64,000 nt of DNA, from positions 5,685 through 69,684 of the forward strand of contig CAVZLU010000001.1 in NCBI GenBank assembly GCA_963776355.1, written 5' to 3'. Below are positions 1 to 12,055 of this stretch, piece by piece; position 1 is the first letter of the stretch, and each line of letters begins with the position of its first letter. The position numbers were made by a program, and so were the translations under genes. The DNA comes from an uncultured Chloroflexia bacterium (GTDB lineage Bacteria; Chloroflexota; Limnocylindria; Limnocylindrales; CSP1-4). A model generated the notes under the pieces. The model was given only the letters and a program-made list of their open reading frames with translations, had not been told where the DNA came from and searched no databases.

Positions 1-2807
1 CCGTGGGTAATCCGAATAACAATCAGTATCTGGGAGCCAGGGCGGGTCAGCCGGGAGTAGAGGTTAACGGCCAGCGGCCCGGAAGCAACAACTATACGGT
101 GGACGAGATGGACGACGCCAAAAGCACGGTCAGCAGCATCATTCTCTATCCGCCCGTGGATGCCATCCAGGAGTTCAAGGTGCAAACCAGTAATCAGGAA
201 TCGGAATTCGGCAAAAATCCGGGTGGCACCGTGAACGTGGTAATCCGAGAGCGGAACCGATAGTTACACGGAAACGTGTATGAATTTTTGCGGAACGACG
301 CCCTGGACGCCAAGAATTTCTTCGATCGGAGCGACTTGCGCATTCCCGCGTTCAGGATGAACCAGTTTGGCGGCACGCTGGGCAGCCCGATTGTGCGGAA
401 CAAAACCTTCGTTTTCGGATACTACGAAGGGTACAAGATCCGTCAGGCGCAGACCTACCTGGATTCCGTGCCCACACCGCCAATGCGCACCGGGAACCTG
501 TCGGAGTTAGGCAAGCCCATCTACGATCCGCTTACTTACGACCCACAGACGAATCTGAAGCAGCGATTCCCGAACGATACAATTCCGGCCAGCCGGCTGG
601 ATGTAGCGGCCCAGCGCCTGATAACGCTCAACGAGCCGCTGCCTAACGCTTCAGGCGTGGGCAACAACTTCCTGTATAATCCCAGACGCAACTCGGACAG
701 CAACGGCTTCGGGACGCGGATCGATCATCAGTTCCGGGAAAAGGATAATTTGTTCGGTCGATTCATCCTGCAAAACTTCAAACTGGATAATACAAGCATC
801 CTAAGCCTTCCGATTCTGCCCAGTCCGTACACTAAGAACACCCAGTCGATCCAGGCCGCTCCTGAGACGCTGAACGCGCGCGGGCTCGCGATCGGGCACA
901 CGCACGTGTTTACGCCCCGCTGGGTCGATGAACTGCGTCTCGGCTACACTCGTGAGCATGTTTACTTCGCCAATCCGTTACAGGGCGATAACGTGGCTGA
1001 CAAGGTAGGCATCCCGTTCGTGAACAATCCGGCTATAGCGTATTCGAGTGGGATGCCAAGCTTTTCGGTGACCGGGTTTACGGGACTCGGCGAATCCGGC
1101 ATTCAGCCGTTCATAGTAACTGACAACAACTATGAGGTGACCAACCACGTGACCTGGCTGAAGGGTCGACACAGTATCAAGTTAGGAGGTGACTTAATCC
1201 GGCGCCAGTACAATTTCTTTCAATCCAGCAGCCAGCGTGGGAGCTTCTCGTTCAATGGACAATTCACCAGCCAGATTGGAATCGGCAATACGGGTAGCGG
1301 CATGGGTGATTTCCTGCTTGGATTGCCATCGGAGCAGTGCCTTGACTGTGCTCCTCGGCGAAGTGGGGCGAGCGCCAGATTGAAGCCGGCGGGGTATGTG
1401 CAGGATAGTTGGAAGGCAACTGGCTAGTTTCACTTACTTTCGGTCTGCGGTACGAATTGTATACGCCGCGGGTGGAAGTAGCCGACCGGCAAGCGAATTT
1501 TGCCCCGACCGTACCCGGCGGCGCAGTGGTGCTGGCCGGTTCCGGTGCGCCATGCGGGCGCGCCCTTCGATGCATCGATTTCGGAGACTTCGCGCCACGT
1601 TTCGGCTTTGCTTACCAGTTGAACTCGAAGTTCGTCGTTGCGCGGTGGTTACGGCTTTTTCTACGACGACTACGCCGTGCATGGGTTCGGGGGAACTTCC
1701 GGACTGATGTATCAGCCGCCATTCGCCTGGAGTTCTTCCATAACCACTCCAATCACCAGTCCCACCAACCGGCTGGAGGATGGCATTCCGCCTGTGATTA
1801 CTATACCCATAACGAACGGTAAGGTGTCCCGTCAGAGGCGTCTTATACACCTCCACCTACCAAAACCCGTACGGCAAGAACTCCTACGTCCAACAGCGAA
1901 ACCTCACTGTCGAACAGCTACTGACGAAAGATTTGGTATTGTCGGCATCATGCGTGGGCAACAAGGGAACGCGAAATATGTTTAGGTCGGATGTAAACCG
2001 GGCCGTTCCAGGTCCTGGCGACGTGCAGTTACGACGTCCGTTTCAGGGTGGCCGGGCGTGACCGCGATGTTCAACGATGGCCAGTCCAGCTACAACAGTC
2101 TGCAGATGAAGGCGCAGCAACGCCTGGCGCGCGGCTTCAGGTTCCTGGCGGGCTATACGTTTGCAAAAGCCATGGACGACGGCAAGGGTGAAGGCAGCGT
2201 TGTGCAGGATGCTTATTACCGGAAAGGAGACCGGGGGCGCTCGGATTGGGACGTGACCCACCGTTTCGTATTCAGCTCGACGTACGAGTTGCCGTTTGCC
2301 GGGGTAAGAGTATGGCAGGAGGGCTTGGAAAGCTTGGTTCGAAGCTGGTGGAAGGCTGGAATATTAACGGCATCGTCCAGGTTCGACCGGGCTTCCGTTA
2401 ACACCCACCCTGGCGACTCCGCTCGCTAACACAGGCACATCGAGCCGGGCGAACTGTATCGCGAATCCGATACTCAGCAATCCAACGCCAACAGATGGTT
2501 CGATCCCTCGGCCTTCGGGACGCCGGCCCTCTACACTTTCGGAAACTGCGGCCGAAACACTTTCAATGGTCCCGGAACGCACCAGGTGGATGTGAATTTC
2601 GAGAAGACGACATATCTTTCCGGAGAGCGGAGCCGGTATGTGCAGTTCCGCATGGAAATGTTCAACCTGTTCAATACGCCTCAGTTCAATAACCCCAACA
2701 TTTCGATCGGGTCGCCGACTGTGGGCACGATCTCGAGCGCGGGAGATCCGGCAAATTTTACGCGGACTTCCAGGCAGATCCAGCTTGCATTGAAGTTCTA
2801 TTTTTGA
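1..2807 (+). CDS. TonB-dependent outer-membrane receptor (Acidobacteria Oar-like), 5'-partial, broken by several frameshifts
   Basis: Consecutive fragments (3-263, 276-1427, 1409-1822, 1638-1985, 2058-2429, 2586-2807) with family motifs VNGQR, DAIQEFKVQT, YEFLRNDALDAKNFF, NQFGGTLG, YVQDSWK, FAPRFGFAY, EMFNLFNTPQF and C-terminal RQIQLALKFYF. Confidence 0.9.
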
Positions 2808-2950
2808 CAGTGCTAACTCTCAAACAGGGTGTAACGGTGGAGCGCACGCGCGCGTCCAAGCACCCAGCGGCATACCCGGGATGAGGCCTGGACGCACTCA
2901 GCCCTACGCCAGCCCTTGTGCCCGGTGCCGAAATGGAGTACACGTCGATT

Positions 2951-3931
2951 ATGAGGAATAATCTCATTCGCTTCGCAATGCCCCACAGCGCACTGGTTCC
3001 GCTTTCGCTGCTTATGTGCCTTGCGCCAATACTGCGCGCCGATGTCACGCTCCGCTATACATCCGATGTGCAGTTGGCCTCCTTCCTGCCTCCTGAGATG
3101 CTCGATCAGTTTCAAAAGGGCCTGAAAGGGGCTGTGGGAGCATCGCAGACGATTCGCATGAAGGGCAACAAGGGATATACGACTGCCGGCAAGTTCCTCT
3201 TCATCGTGGATTTCGACAAGCAGGAATTGACGATGGTGGATGGCGAGAACAAGCACGTGGCGACCGTGCCCGCCGGCCAGTACTCCGAGAAGATGCTGGC
3301 CTCGATGCCCAAGATCCCGGAGGAGGCGCGCAAGGTGTTCGACTCGACGAAAGTCTCCTTCGATTCGCACAAGACAGGACGCACCGAATTGATTCAGGGC
3401 GTCCAGGCGGAGGAGCGCGAGGTGGTGCTCTCGATCGAAATGCCCGTACCCGGCGGAGATCAGGTCATCCCCATGATGAAAATGGTTATGCAGATCTGGA
3501 CGGCCAAGCCCGAGGAGGCGCTCCGCGTTCAGGCCATCCGCGAATTAACCGGGTACAACCTGTGGACCGGTTACTTCATGAATCCCGGCGAGTCGCTAGG
3601 AAAAATGTTCGGCGCGATGCCCGGCTTCGGTAAAGGCATGAACTCGATGTTGGAGGAGATGGCGAAGAATAAGTCCGTGATGCTGCGGTCTCAAATAAGC
3701 CTCTACTCCTCTTTCTTCGCGCAGATGGCGCAGAACATGCAGAAACAAGGCAAGCCGCTGCCGCCCAGTTACGATCCGGACGCTCCCATCGTGCAGGTGA
3801 AGCAGGAGGCCGCGGAGTTGTCCACGGCGTCTGTGGAGGATTCGACATTTCAGGTTCCCGAAGGCTATACGGCGGTGCCCATGGAAGACCTGATGAAGGC
3901 TCTGGTACAGCCGCACCAGCCGACGCTGTAG
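2951..3931 (+). CDS. Secreted hypothetical protein (DUF4412-like)
   Basis: Long ORF with coding-like codon usage, signal-peptide-like N terminus ending LRA-DVT, C-terminal STFQVPEGY motif; start uncertain (2918/2933/2951/2978). Confidence 0.65.
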   Translation: MRNNLIRFAMPHSALVPLSLLMCLAPILRADVTLRYTSDVQLASFLPPEMLDQFQKGLKGAVGASQTIRMKGNKGYTTAGKFLFIVDFDKQELTMVDGENKHVATVPAGQYSEKMLASMPKIPEEARKVFDSTKVSFDSHKTGRTELIQGVQAEEREVVLSIEMPVPGGDQVIPMMKMVMQIWTAKPEEALRVQAIRELTGYNLWTGYFMNPGESLGKMFGAMPGFGKGMNSMLEEMAKNKSVMLRSQISLYSSFFAQMAQNMQKQGKPLPPSYDPDAPIVQVKQEAAELSTASVEDSTFQVPEGYTAVPMEDLMKALVQPHQPTL

Positions 3932-4100
3932 CATAGCCCGCAACCGGCGGATTCATAACGTCCCCATACTGATCGCAGAATCGCGGAGGGCCTTGACTGA
4001 CCTGTACGCCGGGCTGCAGGGGAGCCGCAGCCGCGTCCCAACGGCCCGTATCAACCAGTTTCAGTTTCTTGTTGCCCCGCAAGGTAGAATAACCCCATTG

Positions 4101-5430
4101 ATGCCTCCTTCTCATGGGCCTTATCTCCTGCTGCTGACGCTTGGGTCGGTAGCACTGTTGCTGGTGTTGATTCTGGTAGTTCGGCTGCACGCCTTTCTGG
4201 CGCTGCTGCTGTCGGCCATGGCGCTCGGCTTGGGCGCGGGCATGGCGCCGGTCAAGGTGCTGGCGTCCGTGCAGGCCGGATTCGGCGAGGCCCTGGGATT
4301 CATTGCCATCGTGGTGGGTCTGGGTGCGATGATCGGACGGTTTCTGGAACACGCCGGCGGCGGGCGCGCGCTGGCCGACTGGTTGCTCTCGAAATTCGGA
4401 CGTGAGCGCGCAGTCTGGGCCGTGCTGTTCGCGGCCTTTCTGGTGGGCCTGCCGATTTTCTTCGAAGTCGGATTCATTATCCTGGTGCCGCTGGTATGGA
4501 ACCTGGCGCGCGAGTCGAAACGGTCGCTGCTGTACTACGGGATGGCGCTGATGGCGCCGCTGACCGTCACGCACGCGCTGGTGCCGCCGCATCCGGCGCC
4601 GTCGGCTGCCTGCCAACTGTTGGGCGGCAGACCTGGGGCGCGTGATTCTTTACGGCGCGGCGCTTTCACTGCCGATGGCGATCGTCGAGCGGCATTCTGT
4701 ATGGCGGCTGGATAGCGCGGCGGATTTTGTGCCGCTGCCCGCCATGGCGATCGATCGGCAGCCGGACGCGCCGGGCGAGGCAAGAACCCGCCGCCCGTGC
4801 CCCTGGTCGTGCTCATTCTGCTGTTGCCGGTTATCCTGATCTTCGGGCACTACGATTTGGGGAGGTCCGGTCTTCAGCTTTCGTGGGTCATCCGTTTACC
4901 GCGCTCACAATCGCCGCGCTGGCGGCGATGCTCTGCTTCGGCTTCGCGCGCGGGCTCGACCGCAAGGGCATTTCCAAAATGGCAACGGATGCTTTGGAGC
5001 CGATCGGCACGTTGCTCGTGATCATGGGCGGCGGCGGCGCCTTCAAGCAGGTCATCGTGGATTCGGGCGTGGGCCCCTACGCGGCCAAGATGCTGGCGGC
5101 ATCCAGCATCTCGCCGCTGTTGGTGGTGTACCTGATGGCCGCCGTGATGCGCGTCGTGCAAGGTTCGGCCACGGTGGCGATCATCACCGCGGCCGGGATC
5201 GCGGCGCCCATGGTGAAGGGCATTCCCGGGTATCGGCCGGAGATGATCGTGCTGGCTTGTGCTGCGGCGGTACGTTCCTTTCGCACGTGAACGACGCCGG
5301 GTTCTGGATGGTGAATCAGTACCTGGGCATGACCGTGCCGCAAACACTCAAATCCTGGACCATGCTGAAAATGATCGCGTCCGTGACCGGATTCGCGATT
5401 GTGCTGCTGGCGCAGTGGCTGATCGGCTGA
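4101..5430 (+). CDS. gntP: GntP-family gluconate:H+ symporter (frameshifted)
   Basis: Hydrophobic fragments with LHAFLALLL, GLGAMIGRFLE, FFEVGFIILVPL, HALVPPHPAP, GGGGAFKQVIVDSG, QGSATVA, SHVNDAGFW motifs in shifting frames. Confidence 0.85.
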
Positions 5431-5435
5431 ACGGA

Positions 5436-5764
5436 ATGATGAAACTATACGACCTGGATCCGGGATCCGACTGCCCGGAGATTGTGCGCATGATCGTCGA
5501 GATCCCCAAGAACTCGGCGAATAAATACGAGTACGACGGGGAACTGGGTGTGTTCCGGCTGGACCGGGCGCTGTATTCGCCGATGCATTATCCGGGCGAC
5601 TATGGCTTCATCCCGGGGACGCTGGCCGAAGACGGGGATCCCATGGACGTGCTGGCGCTGGTGGAAGAGCCCAGCTTTTCCGGATGTCTGATCGGGGTGC
5701 GACCGCTGGGGTTGCTGGATATGCTGGACCAGGAGGAGCCGGACCAGAAGATCCTCGCGGTGCC
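5436..5764 (+). pseudogene. ppa: Family I inorganic pyrophosphatase, 3' part lost by insertion
   Basis: IEIPK-like, NKYEYD, LDRALYSPMHYPGDYGFIPGTLAEDGDPMDVL, DQKILAVP; similarity stops at ~5764 where mobile DNA begins. Confidence 0.9.
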
Positions 5765-5771
5765 CCTCGGG

Positions 5772-6420
5772 GTCGAGTAGGCCCAGGGAATCTCACCCCG
5801 AGCCCCTCACGGAACCGTGCTTGAGCCTCTCGACTCACACGGCTCGTGCCACCCCCTGAAGGCTACCGCCTTCCGTCGAAACCAGCCGGTTCCTCCTGTT
5901 GTCAGTTGACCGAAACGGCTCCAACGCGGATGGCCCGCCCCCTTCCCTCCACGGACATTACTCCGCTTCATCGGTACTACGAGGCAGTCCGCCCCTGATT
6001 GTCGCATCGGTACTTTCCGCCTCGCGGGTCTTCCGCTTGTGCCTTTTCCCTTGCCATCGCCAACCAGGTTCTCGAGTTCCGTACAAAAGCCCGAATTTGA
6101 GTCACGCCTCTTCTACACCGGACACCACATGGCCCGAAAGTAGGTCTCCTGCCATGCTGATCCCAGAGCAGTGACCACGCCCTGGTTCTGATGCCATCCG
6201 AAGTTTTGTTTCGATGCTTCATCAAAGGTTCGCTTACGCTCGTCTCTCAAATCCATACATGACGAAATCTAATGTCTCGCCTTTTAACCGTGACGTTCAC
6301 CACCGCGGCTTTTGCCCGAAGCAGCTCACGGCTGTTTGAAGCCTCCTCCTACCAGACGGCTTCGAAGGGCCTACCTCCATCTTTCGCACAGCATGACGCT
6401 TTCGCGTCTTCTCGACACAC
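5772..6420 (-). ncRNA. ORF-less group II intron (IIB-like), 649 nt
   Basis: Minus strand begins GUGUG (6420); 34-nt domain V GAGCCGUGUGAGUCGAGAGGCUCAAGCACGGUUC (5845-5812); domain VI ending CUACUCGAC (5772); no RT ORF in domain IV; EBS1/EBS2 complementary to the flanking 5' exon. Confidence 0.92.
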
Positions 6421-6467
6421 GATCACTTCAAAACCGGCCAACGGACCATCACCTGGACGAACTTGTT

Positions 6468-7487
6468 TTACCTTACCGGCTGGCGGTCTGGCAAGTCCAG
6501 TTTGACCCAGTCCGGTCCCTCATCGTCAGCCCTGAGATGCCGGCTGTCATCCAGCCCGACGTTCTGCAGGACCATATTCCAGTCCTCCCCTTCCTGCGTC
6601 GGAAGGTGAGCTTTGAAAATCAAGTCACTTCTTCCCGTTCTGCGGGCGATACTCGCTACCGCCTCACGAATTACCTCCACCAGCTGGCGTCCTGCATTAT
6701 CGGCGTCGAATGCCGCTACGATTTCGGCCCCGGCCGGTAGCTTCGCGATAGTCGCTTGGACCAGTTCGCTTTGCCGTGAGCTTGGTTTGCCACCCAAGCT
6801 GGCATAGCGGGTCTGGTCCTCCGCATCCGGAAACAGCGCGGCATGGGAGAGCGCGTCCACGGCGCTCTCGGTCAAGATCAGACGCCGGTCGGCCGGCTGG
6901 GTATGCGACATCCACAAACCCTTTTGGCCCCCGGCGGCAAAGCCGGTGAATCCACTATTCTTGATCTCGTATCCGCACAACCCCGCGGCATCGAAATGTG
7001 GAAATACCGTGTTGCCGAGGGAGTCGATCCGCATGCGGCCCGCCAACCGCGGCGATAACAGCGCTGCTGCGGGCACACAGCGCTCGTGTTCGAGATACGG
7101 AAACCGCTGTGCGTCTACCATGCGCCGGTACGCGCCTTCGACACGCATCCGGTCCGGCCCGGCCGGCTCCAGTTTGGGGAACTGCGAGGAGATCGCAGGC
7201 CGGCCGATCCATGGCCGCAGGATCTGACGCACCGCACCGAGACTCAGATTCTGGCGCCTTTGCAGAAGATCGATGACGGTGCCGTTGTCCCGGTCATCTC
7301 TCACGGAAAAGAAGACATAATGGCCATTGCCATTGCGCTTGACGACGATCTTGTCGGCGCCGCGCCGCAGCACCGTGCTTCCGCGCCAGCTCTCGCGCCG
7401 GTCGATCTCATAGCCAAGGCTCACGGCAAATTGGCGTAGATCGATCTGCCGTTTGAAGGCATCGAGTTCGCTATCCTGGTTCCTCAT
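6468..7487 (-). CDS. DUF3991 + Toprim-domain protein (primase-like, plasmid-type)
   Basis: DNGTVIDLLQ, CGYEIKN, GFTGFAAGGQKGLW, LILTESAVDALSH, YASLGG, AAFDADNAG (Toprim E and DxD). Confidence 0.8.
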   Translation of the reverse strand: MRNQDSELDAFKRQIDLRQFAVSLGYEIDRRESWRGSTVLRRGADKIVVKRNGNGHYVFFSVRDDRDNGTVIDLLQRRQNLSLGAVRQILRPWIGRPAISSQFPKLEPAGPDRMRVEGAYRRMVDAQRFPYLEHERCVPAAALLSPRLAGRMRIDSLGNTVFPHFDAAGLCGYEIKNSGFTGFAAGGQKGLWMSHTQPADRRLILTESAVDALSHAALFPDAEDQTRYASLGGKPSSRQSELVQATIAKLPAGAEIVAAFDADNAGRQLVEVIREAVASIARRTGRSDLIFKAHLPTQEGEDWNMVLQNVGLDDSRHLRADDEGPDWVKLDLPDRQPVR

Positions 7488-7535
7488 CAGAAAAAACCTT
7501 TTCCTTCCCTATTGCCCGTTTTTCTTCGTGGGTGA

Positions 7536-7961
7536 TCACTGGCTTTCCGCCGCTGTAGCTGCTGCCAGCTTGGTGCGCCAACTCCGCGGGCCGCACTTGA
7601 GCACATGCCCGTGGTGCAGCAGCCGGTCCAGCATGGCGGTGACCGCGGCCGCATCGCCCAGCAGTTTTCCCCAGTCTTCCACGGGTCTGTTCGAGGTCAG
7701 CAGCGTGCTCGCCCGTTCGTATCGCCGCATGATGATTTCCAGCAGGTCCTCGGCCGCGGTATGCGGCAGTTTGCGCATGCCGAAATCGTCGATGATGAGG
7801 AGCGGCACGCTGGCCACCGACTCCATGAACTGCTTGCGCGTACCCTCCACTACCGCCTCCGCCAGATTGTCCAGCAGGACATGCGTCTCCCGGTACAGCA
7901 CACGATAGTTCTGTTGGATAGCGGCTTGGCCGATGGCTTGGCCCAAGTGACTCTTTCCCGT
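7536..7961 (-). pseudogene. istB: IS21 helper ATPase IstB, 3' part
   Basis: (T)GKSHLGQAIG, LLIIDDFG (Walker B), RRYERASTLLTSNRPVEDW, AMLDRLLHHG. Confidence 0.92.
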
Positions 7962-7963
7962 CC

Positions 7964-8386
7964 CACCAGAGCCAGTCACATGATGCCTATGTTTCCGAGC
8001 GCGTAACGGTACATTACCGTTGGCTCGCTCTCCACGAAGTTACCCTTGACTGTCACCGGAGGGTTTCTCTTCCTGATGGTGAGCACCTCCACTGTGAGTT
8101 GCCGGATGGAGCGATGGGTGCGATTCCACTTTGGATGACAGATCCTGTGACCTGTGCCGGCTTCTCTTTCGGTGAACCCTTGGTTTCAGTCGAAGCGCTC
8201 AGCAATCTCCGCGCGCTGCTGGACTCGGTGCGATCCAGGCATTCGACCAGGGCAGGCACCGAAGGAAGCGGAGAGGAGAGCCATAAGGGGCCAAGGGTCT
8301 CAGCGCCCCAAGAGATGACGCGGGAAGTTTCGGGGCCAATCATACTGCGAACTTTAAGGAGTCCCGGGGGTGAGGGAAAGTGCTGA
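7964..8386 (+). CDS. Small accessory protein of the recombinase element (Y4bD/DUF5372-like), lacking its start codon in the integrated state
   Basis: Stop-free frame from the element's left end: HDAYVSERVTVHYRWLALH...ELPDGAMGAIPLWMTDPVTCAGFSFGEPLVSVEALSNLRALL; no ATG/GTG/TTG until 8099; family name from recollection only. Confidence 0.65.
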   Translation, partial: HQSQSHDAYVSERVTVHYRWLALHEVTLDCHRRVSLPDGEHLHCELPDGAMGAIPLWMTDPVTCAGFSFGEPLVSVEALSNLRALLDSVRSRHSTRAGTEGSGEESHKGPRVSAPQEMTREVSGPIILRTLRSPGGEGKC

Positions 8387-8916
8387 AACCGGATGTCATG
8401 CACTGCGCGACGGGAAACGTACGACACAGCTTCCGGAGAGTTTCTCCACACAGGCTGGTCGCAGCCGTTTTCGAAGTGGTGCGAAGATACAGCGCACCAA
8501 CGATGCGGCTGATCAGGCTCAACTATAGTCGGGCCCGAAGCGTGCTATGTGTCTGCCGGATTTACCCCGGCTGTTGGCTTCATAATCCGACAACTCTCTC
8601 TCAGTGGGTCTATAGTGTTGGTGATCGTCACCACCTAAAACAGGAGTGCCACCGGAATAACTCGCGATGCCGATTCTTCTCTGTAAGGATGCCTCCTCTC
8701 TCCAATCGGCTCGATTACCCGTCCGGCGTAGTCTCAGTGTCGGGCACTCTCTTGTCCGAATCAACACCGCCAACGAATCCAGCTGAGGTCCCTTGGCCGA
8801 GTTTCGTCTCGGATCTATGCTTGGCGCTGGCGACCTCCTATGATTACGGAAAGGTGCCGGCGGTCTGTCGGTGCCTCGTAGCCAAGAACGAAGACCGAAG
8901 GAGATACGCAGCAGCA

Positions 8917-9113
8917 TGACTCGGAATCCTAAAGCGCCAGCGGCCCACCAGCAGCTGCTCTTTTTTCAGGCAGCCCAGCGACCACTAGAGCTGCCCAGCG
9001 ACAAACAACGAGAACTCCAAACAGCAGTAGCGGACCTTCTGTTGAATGCCCTCACGGGTGACGATCTCATCGACAGTGGAGGAACTGATGACGAACCCCA
9101 AGCTCACGCCTGA
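8917..9113 (+). CDS. Small hypothetical protein overlapping the recombinase start
   Basis: MTRNPK...QQLLFF...LPSDKQRELQTAVADLLLNAL; overlaps the recombinase 5' end, a layout I recall in related elements. Confidence 0.55.
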
Positions 9114-11184
9114 CCATCTACGCCGCAAAGCCATTATCTACATCCGCCAATCTACACCCAGCCAGGTACTGTACAACAGGGAAAGCCAGCGACGGCAGTA
9201 CGGGCTCGCCGACTATGCGCGGTCGTTGGGCTTCGAGGAGGTGGAGACCATAGACGACGATCTGGGCCGTTCCGGTTGTGGGTTGGTGGAACGCCCAGGC
9301 TTTGAACATCTGGTGGCCGAAATCTGCGCCGGGCAAGTGGGAGCCGTGTTCTGTATCGAGGCTTCGCGCTTGGCCCGAAACGGTCGAGATTGGCATCACC
9401 TAATTGAACTGTGCGGTTTGGTCAACGCCTTGGTGATCGACCCGGAGGGGATGTACGATCCCCGTCTCATCAACGATCGCCTGCTCTTGGGGCTTCGGGG
9501 CACAATGAACGAGTACGAGGTGAACCTGCTCCGGCAGCGCTCCCTGGAAGCCATTCGTCAGAAAGCGCAACGCGGCGAGCTGCAATTTCGTCTGCCCATT
9601 GGTTATTGTTGGACCCTGGCTGGCAAGATCGAGATTGATCCGGATCAACGCGTGCAACAGGTCATCCGCCTGATCTTTGAAAAACTCGGCGAACTGGGCA
9701 GCGTGCGTCAGGTGTTTCTGGCTTTCCGTCGCGAAGGGATTCTCCTGCCAACGCTAAATCTGAACGATGATCCGTTGGGCCCGAAAGTCAGTTGGAAGCC
9801 TGGCCGGTACGGCACCATTCTGAAGATCGTAAGCAATCCCGTGTACGCGGGTGCCTACGCGTTTGGTAAGACAGAGGTGCGCACGAGCGTTGTCGATGGC
9901 CGAGCGCGGAAAACCGAGGGCCATCAGAAGCCGAGAGAAAGTTGGGCAGTCTTGATCAAGGGCCACCATGCCGGTTACATCTCTTGGGAGCAGTTCGAAC
10001 GGAATCAGGTACTATTGAGCGAGAATGCTTACATGCAGTCGCGTATGGGTCGTAGGTCAGGCCGGGGCGGTAAGAGCCTGCTAGCTGGGCTGCTGCGTTG
10101 CGGCCGCTGCGGTCGAATGTTGAATGTCTCGTACAAAGGCCGAGGCGGCAACCGGCCATGTTTCGATTGCCGGGCCATGGTCAACCACGGACTGAAGAGT
10201 TGTATCAGATTCAGTGGCTGGAGGCCCGACCGAGCGGTGTCCTGCGAGATTCTGCGCGTGATCGAAGGTAGCGCCGTGGAAGCGGCTCTGGAAGCGGCCG
10301 GGCGGATGACGCAACAAGACGCGGAATGGCGCCGTGCGTTAGACCTGGAGTTAGAACAGGCCCGTTATGAAGCCCGTTTAGCGGCGCGTCGGTACGAGGC
10401 CGTGGATTGCGACAACCGCTTGGTAGCCAGTGAACTGGAAGGGAGATGGAATGCCGCGCTGGAAAAAGTGCGGGAACTAGAGAACCGAATGCAAGAGGCG
10501 GAATCCACTGCGCAGGCCAAACCTGTTCCGAGTAAGGAAGCTTTGCTGGCGTTAGCCGAAGATCTGCCTGGGATCTGGAACGCGCCGGAGACCGACATGC
10601 GACTGAAGCAGCGGATTGCCCGAATTCTGATCCAAGAGATTGTGGCAGATCTGGACGAAAAGGCCAATGAGATCGTCCTGATCATCCACTGGCAGGGTGG
10701 ACGCCACTCGGAGTTGCGCGTGGCTCGAAACAAGACTGGTCACCACGGCAGGTGCACTAACGTCGAGGTATTTGATCTGATCACTCAAATGGCGGGCCAA
10801 TATCGCGACGAACAGATCGCCGGGACGCTGAACCGGCTTGGACTACGGACAGGCGCGGGGAATAGCTGGGACGCGGCGCGGGTTCATGCTCTACGTGCAA
10901 AGCTGGACCTTCCAGCATTCGATCCAGCGCGGCCAGGGCCGGTCATGCTGAGCCTGGACCAGGCTGCAACTCAGCTCGGCACCTGCCGCACATCGGTCAG
11001 GCGATTGATCCGGGATAAGACTCTGCCAGCCACGCAAGTCATCCCCTACGCACCTTGGCAGATCTCGGAAGAGGCCGTCAAATCGCAGACCGTTATCGAT
11101 GCCGTAAAGAAAATGCAGATGCGCAGTCATGCCCCGCGGCCACGAGATGTGGATGACAAGCAGTTAATGTTTTCAATGTCTTAA
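9088..11184 (+). CDS. Large serine recombinase (resolvase, recombinase, Zn-ribbon, coiled coil, C-terminal HTH)
   Basis: GGAGGA RBS, YIRQS catalytic Ser, DDDLGRSG, ERPGF, EASRLARN, NPVYAG, GLLRCGRCGR, C-terminal excisionase-like HTH (LSLDQAATQLGTCRTSVRRLI). Confidence 0.95.
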   Translation: MTNPKLTPDHLRRKAIIYIRQSTPSQVLYNRESQRRQYGLADYARSLGFEEVETIDDDLGRSGCGLVERPGFEHLVAEICAGQVGAVFCIEASRLARNGRDWHHLIELCGLVNALVIDPEGMYDPRLINDRLLLGLRGTMNEYEVNLLRQRSLEAIRQKAQRGELQFRLPIGYCWTLAGKIEIDPDQRVQQVIRLIFEKLGELGSVRQVFLAFRREGILLPTLNLNDDPLGPKVSWKPGRYGTILKIVSNPVYAGAYAFGKTEVRTSVVDGRARKTEGHQKPRESWAVLIKGHHAGYISWEQFERNQVLLSENAYMQSRMGRRSGRGGKSLLAGLLRCGRCGRMLNVSYKGRGGNRPCFDCRAMVNHGLKSCIRFSGWRPDRAVSCEILRVIEGSAVEAALEAAGRMTQQDAEWRRALDLELEQARYEARLAARRYEAVDCDNRLVASELEGRWNAALEKVRELENRMQEAESTAQAKPVPSKEALLALAEDLPGIWNAPETDMRLKQRIARILIQEIVADLDEKANEIVLIIHWQGGRHSELRVARNKTGHHGRCTNVEVFDLITQMAGQYRDEQIAGTLNRLGLRTGAGNSWDAARVHALRAKLDLPAFDPARPGPVMLSLDQAATQLGTCRTSVRRLIRDKTLPATQVIPYAPWQISEEAVKSQTVIDAVKKMQMRSHAPRPRDVDDKQLMFSMS

Positions 11185-11185
11185 C

Positions 11186-11201
11186 GAGGAGTAGCAGAAT
11201 G
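11186..11201 (+). promoter_or_regulatory. Orphan RBS plus start codon at the element's right end
   Basis: GAGGAG (11186-11191), 7-nt spacer, ATG (11199-11201), immediately after the recombinase stop codon. Confidence 0.7.
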
Positions 11202-11206
11202 TCACG

Positions 11207-11538
11207 GTGCCGCCGGGACCCAGGAAAAGTGCATCTTCCCGCTTGCCGATGAAAGCACAGGTGGCCAGGTCAAACACCAGGCTGCGATTCATCTTCGGGT
11301 TAAAAGTGAAGTCGAAGTTGTCCAAAGTCTTGTGCGGGTCGCGGAAGGCGGCCTGTTTGCGCCGGCGATCCAAGAGTCTCTCGCTGCGGCGGGTAAGCTC
11401 GTCACTCACCAGACACGAGATCAGATCGATCGGCGCCATGGCTTCGGCCTGCGCTTGGCGCAGTCTGGTTTCCAGCACGGCGGCTGTGCCGCCGAGCCGG
11501 AGTTGTCGTAAAGCCCGTTGTAATTCAATGAGGTTCAT
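11207..11538 (-). pseudogene. istB: IS21 helper ATPase IstB, 5' part
   Basis: MNLIELQRALRQLRLGG...AAFRDPHKTLDNFDFTFNPKMNRSLVFDLATCAFI...LFLGPGGT. Confidence 0.92.
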
Positions 11539-11955
11539 GGTTCGCTCTCCTGGGTTTTGCTTTGAATGAAATCGCGGTATTCGGTGAGGTCGCGGATCAG
11601 GGGATCGACTTGCCGCAGGCTCAGAGGCAATTGCGGACCCCGTTCCAGATAGCGGCGCACAAAACGGTAGTAGTTGGAAGCGCCGGTCTCCAGGGCCACG
11701 GCGCAGGCATCTTCCACCATCGCCGGGCCATGCTTCTTGGCCAGCCCCAGCACGCCCTGAATGCGGCGTACGGCGACTTGCCCCTCCTCCTCGTACATCC
11801 TGCGGCACACGACTCCCATCTGCTGACCGGCACGGTCGGCGCGCAGCAGTAGGTGTTGTATCCCCGGCGGTGTGTGTTTGGGGCGGTCCTCGTCCTTGAT
11901 CCGATGTTTGCCACGCACCTGAGGCAGGTGTTCCCGCAACAGTTCGCCGGTCTGC
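11535..11955 (-). pseudogene. istA: IS21 transposase IstA, C-terminal fragment only
   Basis: TGELLREHL...AVRRIQGVLGLAKKHG...ACAVALE...YRFVRRYLER...QVDPLIRDLTEY; stop overlaps the istB ATG. Confidence 0.8.
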
Positions 11956-12055
11956 GTCGCCGACATCGCCACGTCGTTCCAGATCAAGCTCTGACCCGGC
12001 GCCTCAGGGCCTGTGGCCGAGTCGCGGTCGTGGTCAGGAGCCTCAGGGAGGCGAG

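Follow-up and report, generated by a model that had tools for sequence, protein, structure and literature searches.

We found that the window, as we call the whole 64,000-nucleotide stretch of DNA that was analysed, holds on its minus strand, at 5772-6420, an intact group II intron without an open reading frame (ORF), whose three guide loops (EBSs) pair with the end repeat of an IS21-type insertion sequence (IS). Near-identical copies in soil sequencing runs repeatedly occupy such repeats, at a right end, at a left-type end and in successive repeats. We judge it likely, at a probability of roughly 0.7, that this intron retrohomes into the repeats with the reverse transcriptase (RT) of a class D intron.

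A class-D-related ribozyme without a protein

The 649-nt intron begins with GTGTG and ends with CTCGAC on the minus strand. An Rfam scan of the window gave two matches, to models RF01999 and RF00029, and nothing beyond them: group-II-D1D4-2 at 6258-6378 (92.4 bits) and Intron_gpII at 5772-5847 (54.4 bits). Domains I-VI, a catalytic domain V (5812-5845, by Rfam and sequence) and a bulge in domain VI (5772-5808, by folds), together with EBS1/IBS1, EBS2/IBS2 and EBS3/IBS3 pairings, place it among IIB introns; the unpaired A of domain VI at 5778 is the likely branch point. The longest stop-free frame within the intron is 104 codons, and domain IV is an 87-nt stub without an ORF (5848-5934, minus strand, from the consensus fold and sequence comparison). 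An earlier note on this DNA had read it as a complete 649-nt ribozyme with no RT, which the Rfam domains and the short frame bear out.

Compensatory changes were found in 97 of the 194 predicted pairs, domain IV included, in a 19-sequence alignment that took 18 of the 19 family representatives (L130 was left out as a near-copy of L104). The first and penultimate bases of the intron also covary, being U/G in 18 sequences, G/A in the window and C/G in L192, a pattern consistent with a known boundary interaction. A promoter scan gave 0 sites, and its 2 terminator-like sites were as many as in shuffled sequences. Domain IV retains a hairpin (5909-5890) similar to the DIVa of class D introns that encode an RT; the class D hairpin is described in the accessible text of PMC4615759 as a potential RT-binding site and, by analogy, the hairpin here may bind an RT.

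We term the intron class-D-related, not class D, because the class is defined by its protein (class definitions follow the accessible part of PMC3552965) and the intron has no RT/maturase ORF. Its RNA is nevertheless of class D type, sharing its Rfam model with the RT-bearing introns L004 and L172, the latter with an RT that matches Sinorhizobium meliloti GR4 records at 76%. The strict class D C-terminal motif occurs in 2 of 10 relatives, with LF[VAP]HW in the rest, and RmInt2 itself is without the strict form.

Judged by sequence comparison, the intron is one of a widespread ORF-less, class-D-related lineage with differing targets, which spans at least two phyla. A domain I pattern found 97 loci in genomes and 30 in metagenomes, and whole-genome searches added more; among these are 34 distinct ORF-less sequences of full length, which reduce to 19 on clustering at 95%, measure 641-657 nt and share 71-85% identity with the query. 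RT-bearing relatives, the nearest of them RmInt1/RmInt2-like, are 65-69% identical over domains I-III, and in a tree of these domains 20 ORF-less rows split from 9 RT-bearing rows with support of 100/99, a split and not a proven clade, given midpoint rooting. The ORF-less relatives carry other EBSs and have other targets: not one of the 19 representatives is flanked by the IS21 repeat, and most exons are domains V-VI of other introns, with some transposase-like or palindromic DNA (read by eye). IS21 targeting is therefore specific to the window's subtype, and the proposal in the earlier note that the intron homes to IS21 end repeats stands for this subtype, on pairing and junctions, but does not extend to its relatives.

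The closest relative, L205:4981-5627 (genome G367), is 85% identical and has different EBSs, in palindromic, REP-like or IS-end-like sequence, implying that a recent retargeting separates the two. Three further loci (L039, L083 and L199) are head-to-tail pairs of ORF-less members with no spacer. One genome (G004) has 40 scored intron matches, 32 of them a second repeated form covering only positions 340-649, as well as 49 RT matches. More distant ORF-less relatives (L001:2952-3603 and L002) lie on Methylosinus and Methylomonas plasmids, a possible route of spread.

A cognate RT was sought in genome G000, to which the window belongs (83% complete), where no RVT_1 match was found; this says little, because the intron segment is probably foreign there. 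Group II RT genes exceeded the cut-off in all five tested genomes that hold ORF-less family members.

Guide loops and the IS21 end repeat

EBS1 (GGUCACU, 6176-6170) lies in a stem-loop at 6163-6185 closed by CCAGGGC/GCTCTGG, a stem seen in both the single-sequence fold and the 19-sequence consensus fold, and pairs with IBS1 (AGTGATC, 6427-6421). EBS2 (CAAAAC, 6203-6208) pairs with IBS2 (GTTTTG, 6434-6429), and EBS3, the G at 6113, pairs with IBS3, the C at 5771, in agreement with the family. All of these lie on the minus strand, as do the 5' exon (6421-6440), which is the inner part of the IS21 end repeat, and the 3' exon (5765-5771), which is the terminal 7 bp of the IS (CCTCGGG on the plus strand). 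Together the three loops pair with the repeat at 14 of 14 positions, one of them G-U. The EBS1 and EBS2 pairings and the closing stem are as the earlier note had them, and the folds, together with the covariation seen across the family, place these motifs in EBS positions; a fold placing them outside the EBS loops was not seen. Removing the intron does rebuild the repeat, the joined exons reading CCTCGGG followed by GATCACTTCAAAACCGGCCA, and the note is right in putting the insertion point 7 nt inside the element end: among the distinct IS ends related to it, 18 of 18 have their first repeat at offset 7.

By this comparison the EBS assignments are right, because the EBS positions change with their own exons far above shuffles. 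For EBS1 the covariation score was 5.45 of 6, compared with 3.76 +/- 0.14 (highest 4.23) in 2000 shuffles over 30 distinct EBS1 loops; for EBS2 it was 5.0, compared with 4.09 +/- 0.11 (highest 4.48) in 2000 shuffles over the same 30 relatives, both from a table that retains a few rows with a mispicked 5' boundary (for example L119 and one L016 row). EBS3 could be scored in 17 representatives (2 were unscorable) and in 16 of them matches the base that opens the 3' exon, the exception being a head-to-tail intron pair.

Fifteen of the 18 related ends have, besides the repeat at offset 7, a second one at offset 31 or 32 (24 or 25 bp further in), and three hold a single repeat. Full pairing with EBS1-3 was found in 15 of the 33 repeats of these ends, compared with 0 of 238,404 background positions; when up to one miss was tolerated (G-U allowed), the counts were 31 of 33 and 1 of 238,404. 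Across five whole genomes that were selected because they have the IS, the target pattern had 32 matches, of which 26 fell at listed IS ends; three of the remaining six have the same letters and three are not IS-like, and a reversed-pattern control gave 2. Of 301 genomes sampled within a single Acidobacteriota class, 16 contain the target repeat pattern, and none of the 30 IS-end loci taken from genomes other than the window's holds the intron.

The occupied repeat is the right end of an IS21 element that interrupted an inorganic pyrophosphatase gene (5436-5764, plus strand; PF00719, start taken from the sequence), which the IS end cuts. The IS contains a Toprim/DUF3991 passenger gene (6468-7487, minus strand; profile match) and the 3' half of istB (7536-7979, minus strand), 81% identical to IstB of the intact element L202. 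A large serine recombinase (9046-11184, plus strand; profile match) lies in an element (7980-11190) that splits istB; beyond it are the 5' half of istB (11190-11540, minus strand, bounds approximate) and the 3' part of istA (11535-11975, minus strand), which is 54% identical to IstA of L202 and truncated where low-GC DNA meets high-GC DNA. A contig of soil run X4 joins 6445 to 7570, skipping the Toprim/DUF3991 gene, which suggests that IS variants without this gene exist.

Intact elements of the repeat-bearing subgroup encode IstA and IstB, and L202 exceeds the cut-offs of NF033546 (IstA) and NF038214 (IstB). As expected of IS21, most of the related ends (15 of 18) carry multiple terminal direct repeats; the end in the window carries a single one. 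The terminal CA-3' of IS21 is absent, as 18 of 18 related ends begin with CCT, a count that reflects in part a search pattern that itself required CCT, or the location of ends through the inner repeat. From these features the host IS is best classed as an atypical IS21 subgroup, not of the IS5376 type. Acidobacteriota members of the subgroup (L138-L167, L202-L204) have CC...GG termini and 7-8-bp target duplications, the latter read in 3 of 4 paired elements. An IS terminus at the TG at 5761 was considered and rejected, since related ends begin with CCT.

From window position 1 to about 12000 the G+C content is 55-65%, compared with 70-73% for eight contigs of genome G000. Several genes of this low-GC part are frameshifted; as a lead only, with one protein each, a protein from it resembles Acidobacteriota clusters and one from beyond it Chloroflexota clusters. 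Window 1-11975 (G000:C1 1-17660) is probably a chimeric contig end, with Acidobacteriota-like DNA on a Chloroflexota-like genome. The window's single repeat may stem from recombination between tandem copies or from assembly collapse, because soil run X8 shows two repeats with the window's interior; native single-repeat IS ends occur too.

Occupied repeats in soil sequencing runs

Part of the stretch is contained in 20 of 24 listed sequencing runs, and 8 runs were examined. Five of the eight, all soil runs (X1, X2, X4, X6 and X8), contain pieces that show 0-1 differences and extend over the 5' junction into the repeat, the listed piece from X1 reaching only 6 nt into the exon; the contigs are short, of low depth and possibly misjoined across repeats, and the runs might stem from a single campaign, possibly with the source of the window among them. 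One 766-nt contig of X8 comprises the whole intron with 0 differences; its inner flank is that of the window, and its 3' exon is another repeat. A join in X1 connects 6426 to 5771 via 17 repeat letters, leaving a spacer of 24 bp, and one in X6 connects 6440 to 5771 via 4 repeat letters, leaving 25 bp; these spacers equal the natural repeat spacings. The simplest reading of the two joins is that two introns sit in successive repeats.

Were the intron a decayed remnant and the tandem joins made by the assembler, its position at a probable chimeric contig end among frameshifted genes would fit, as would the known capacity of contigs to loop across repeats. We consider this very improbable: all domains are intact and show compensatory changes, the same sequence recurs in several runs, and the 24- and 25-bp spacers hold repeat letters that are absent from the window and match the natural spacing.

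Both kinds of IS end are occupied. The window shows a right end; a contig of X4 leads out of the intron into another interior, one like the stretch upstream of istA at left ends, and the same left-end-type loose end is also listed for X1 and X6. The distribution of these copies bears on whether the intron moves by itself or is moved. It might have made one or two insertions and then spread mainly as cargo of a still-mobile IS21, which would account for its being identical in several samples. Runs with IS and intron do not cover the window's ppa flank, which could place the pair at other sites or in other strains, though we do not take this as proof of another locus; and 3 of the 18 related ends are single-repeat, so that two repeats may not be strictly required in this subgroup. 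A right end, a left-type end and successive repeats can, however, be occupied only through three or more independent insertions; in vitro, IstA required two complete repeats, albeit in a different IS21 member (accessible text of PMC10122671); and istB is split in the window. Spread mainly as cargo therefore seems to us unlikely, and retrohoming into the repeats remains our preferred reading.

The earlier note had pointed to the flanks of other copies as informative, and when checked, all listed junctions of near-identical copies, from the five soil runs, proved to be IS21 repeats. A different family member, about 90% alike and with another first base, accounts for the only other 5' flank listed, which comes from X1. 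If targeting were relaxed, any loose IBS match would be used, and IS21 ends would be merely the commonest sites while unrelated ones were missed. Such behaviour is seen in a TTCACCT subtype (L005, L016, L018, L037 and L082), found at scattered sites that share mostly IBS1; the junction evidence is that of the junctions listed, and 3 of the 32 pattern matches are not IS-like. Yet every listed near-identical junction is a repeat, and full-match sites are rare outside IS ends, leaving relaxed targeting, in our estimation, with quite a small chance.

Evidence of the kind used for ORF-less introns mobilised in trans, as for TeI3, comes from run contigs and not from an assembled genome. Genome G000 has one intron copy, and no second copy of the subtype was found in samples of 401, 133, 401, 151 and 137 assembled genomes, in which 2-4 candidates per genome were scored; the best match was 85% identical. 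Viral contigs gave nothing matching the intron pattern or the IS end. Among plasmids, 292 records match the intron, 4 of them over at least 80% of its length, the top matches being 67-74% identical, and the IS end as query gave 4 chance matches only. Contigs of an RNA run (X15) cover 5770-6254 and not the 5' junction, with no spliced join listed; runs X9 and X13 contain mostly distant relatives.

A predicted route into the repeats and its precedents

We infer that the intron is mobilised by a borrowed RT. The intron RNA would splice, a class D RT supplied in trans would bind the kept DIVa-like hairpin, and the resulting RNA-protein particle would reverse-splice into a repeat; each IS could offer up to four landing sites, two repeats at each of two ends. 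The 649-bp insert would part an IstA-binding repeat from the tip or from the neighbouring repeat, and the occupied end is predicted to stop transposing, because IS5376 IstA needs two adjacent repeats and splicing cannot restore a DNA site. According to the accessible text of PMC10122671, this IstA required two complete adjacent repeats per end in vitro; by analogy, such biochemistry favours the immobilising of an occupied end.

A broader proposal can be put forward tentatively, as one that may well prove wrong: that an old, protein-free, class-D-derived clade persists across phyla by re-aiming its guides at mobile elements and borrowing any RT, and that the present subtype, filling up to four IstA-binding repeats, acts as an RNA-guided brake on one IS21 subgroup. 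Here one parasite exploits another in a clean natural setting: a gene-less 649-nt RNA uses a transposon's most conserved DNA, its transposase-binding repeats, as serial landing sites. With this intron it becomes possible to test whether introns that occupy IS ends restrain transposition through the DNA itself, and the wider ORF-less family is a natural set of retargeted, compact ribozymes.

In the literature searched, which did not extend to subscription papers, no title or abstract deals with an intron in IS21 end repeats. The two component behaviours are already published, to judge from the accessible texts, IS-end targeting for RmInt2 and ORF-less homing for TeI3, and these precedents limit the surprise. 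For the host, the IS21 model IS5376 likewise has istA, istB and two direct repeats per end, and differs in its terminal CA and 5-bp duplication from the CC...GG termini and 7-8 bp of the window's host subgroup (accessible part of PMC10122671). For the proposed effect on the host, the parallel is RmInt1 in ISRm2011-2, a class D intron proposed in the available text of PMC5894124 to block the spread of its host IS; as described there, RmInt1 interrupts an IS630-family element and blocks through poor splicing, whereas the window's insert lies in transposase-binding DNA and its predicted block would be independent of splicing.

The TeI3 introns of Thermosynechococcus elongatus are ORF-less and retrohome with the RTs of other introns; their families diverge by EBS change, and one family sits in an IS (accessible text of PMC2882425). 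The window's intron is like them in being ORF-less, in the EBS divergence between families and in having an IS as the target of one. As described there, TeI3 emerged inside a single genome, out of an RT-encoding intron already resident in it, and the IS that it targets is an IS200 element. The window's lineage, by contrast, extends over two or more phyla, and the relatives compared include no close RT-encoding parent.

Closest in targeting is RmInt2 of Sinorhizobium meliloti GR4 (class D, IIB), which lies in ISRm17 inverted repeats (PMC4615759 and PMC5894124, in their accessible parts). The two share a class D-type ribozyme, EBSs aimed at IS end repeats, left and right, and a similar DIVa hairpin. 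RmInt2 encodes its own RT, which the window's intron does not, and its host IS has an ISNCY transposase, not one of IS21, as seen in L206, which we took as RmInt2 from strain, context and GAAU loop. The window's target, unlike that of RmInt2, is a direct-repeat array, so that copies can stack within one end.
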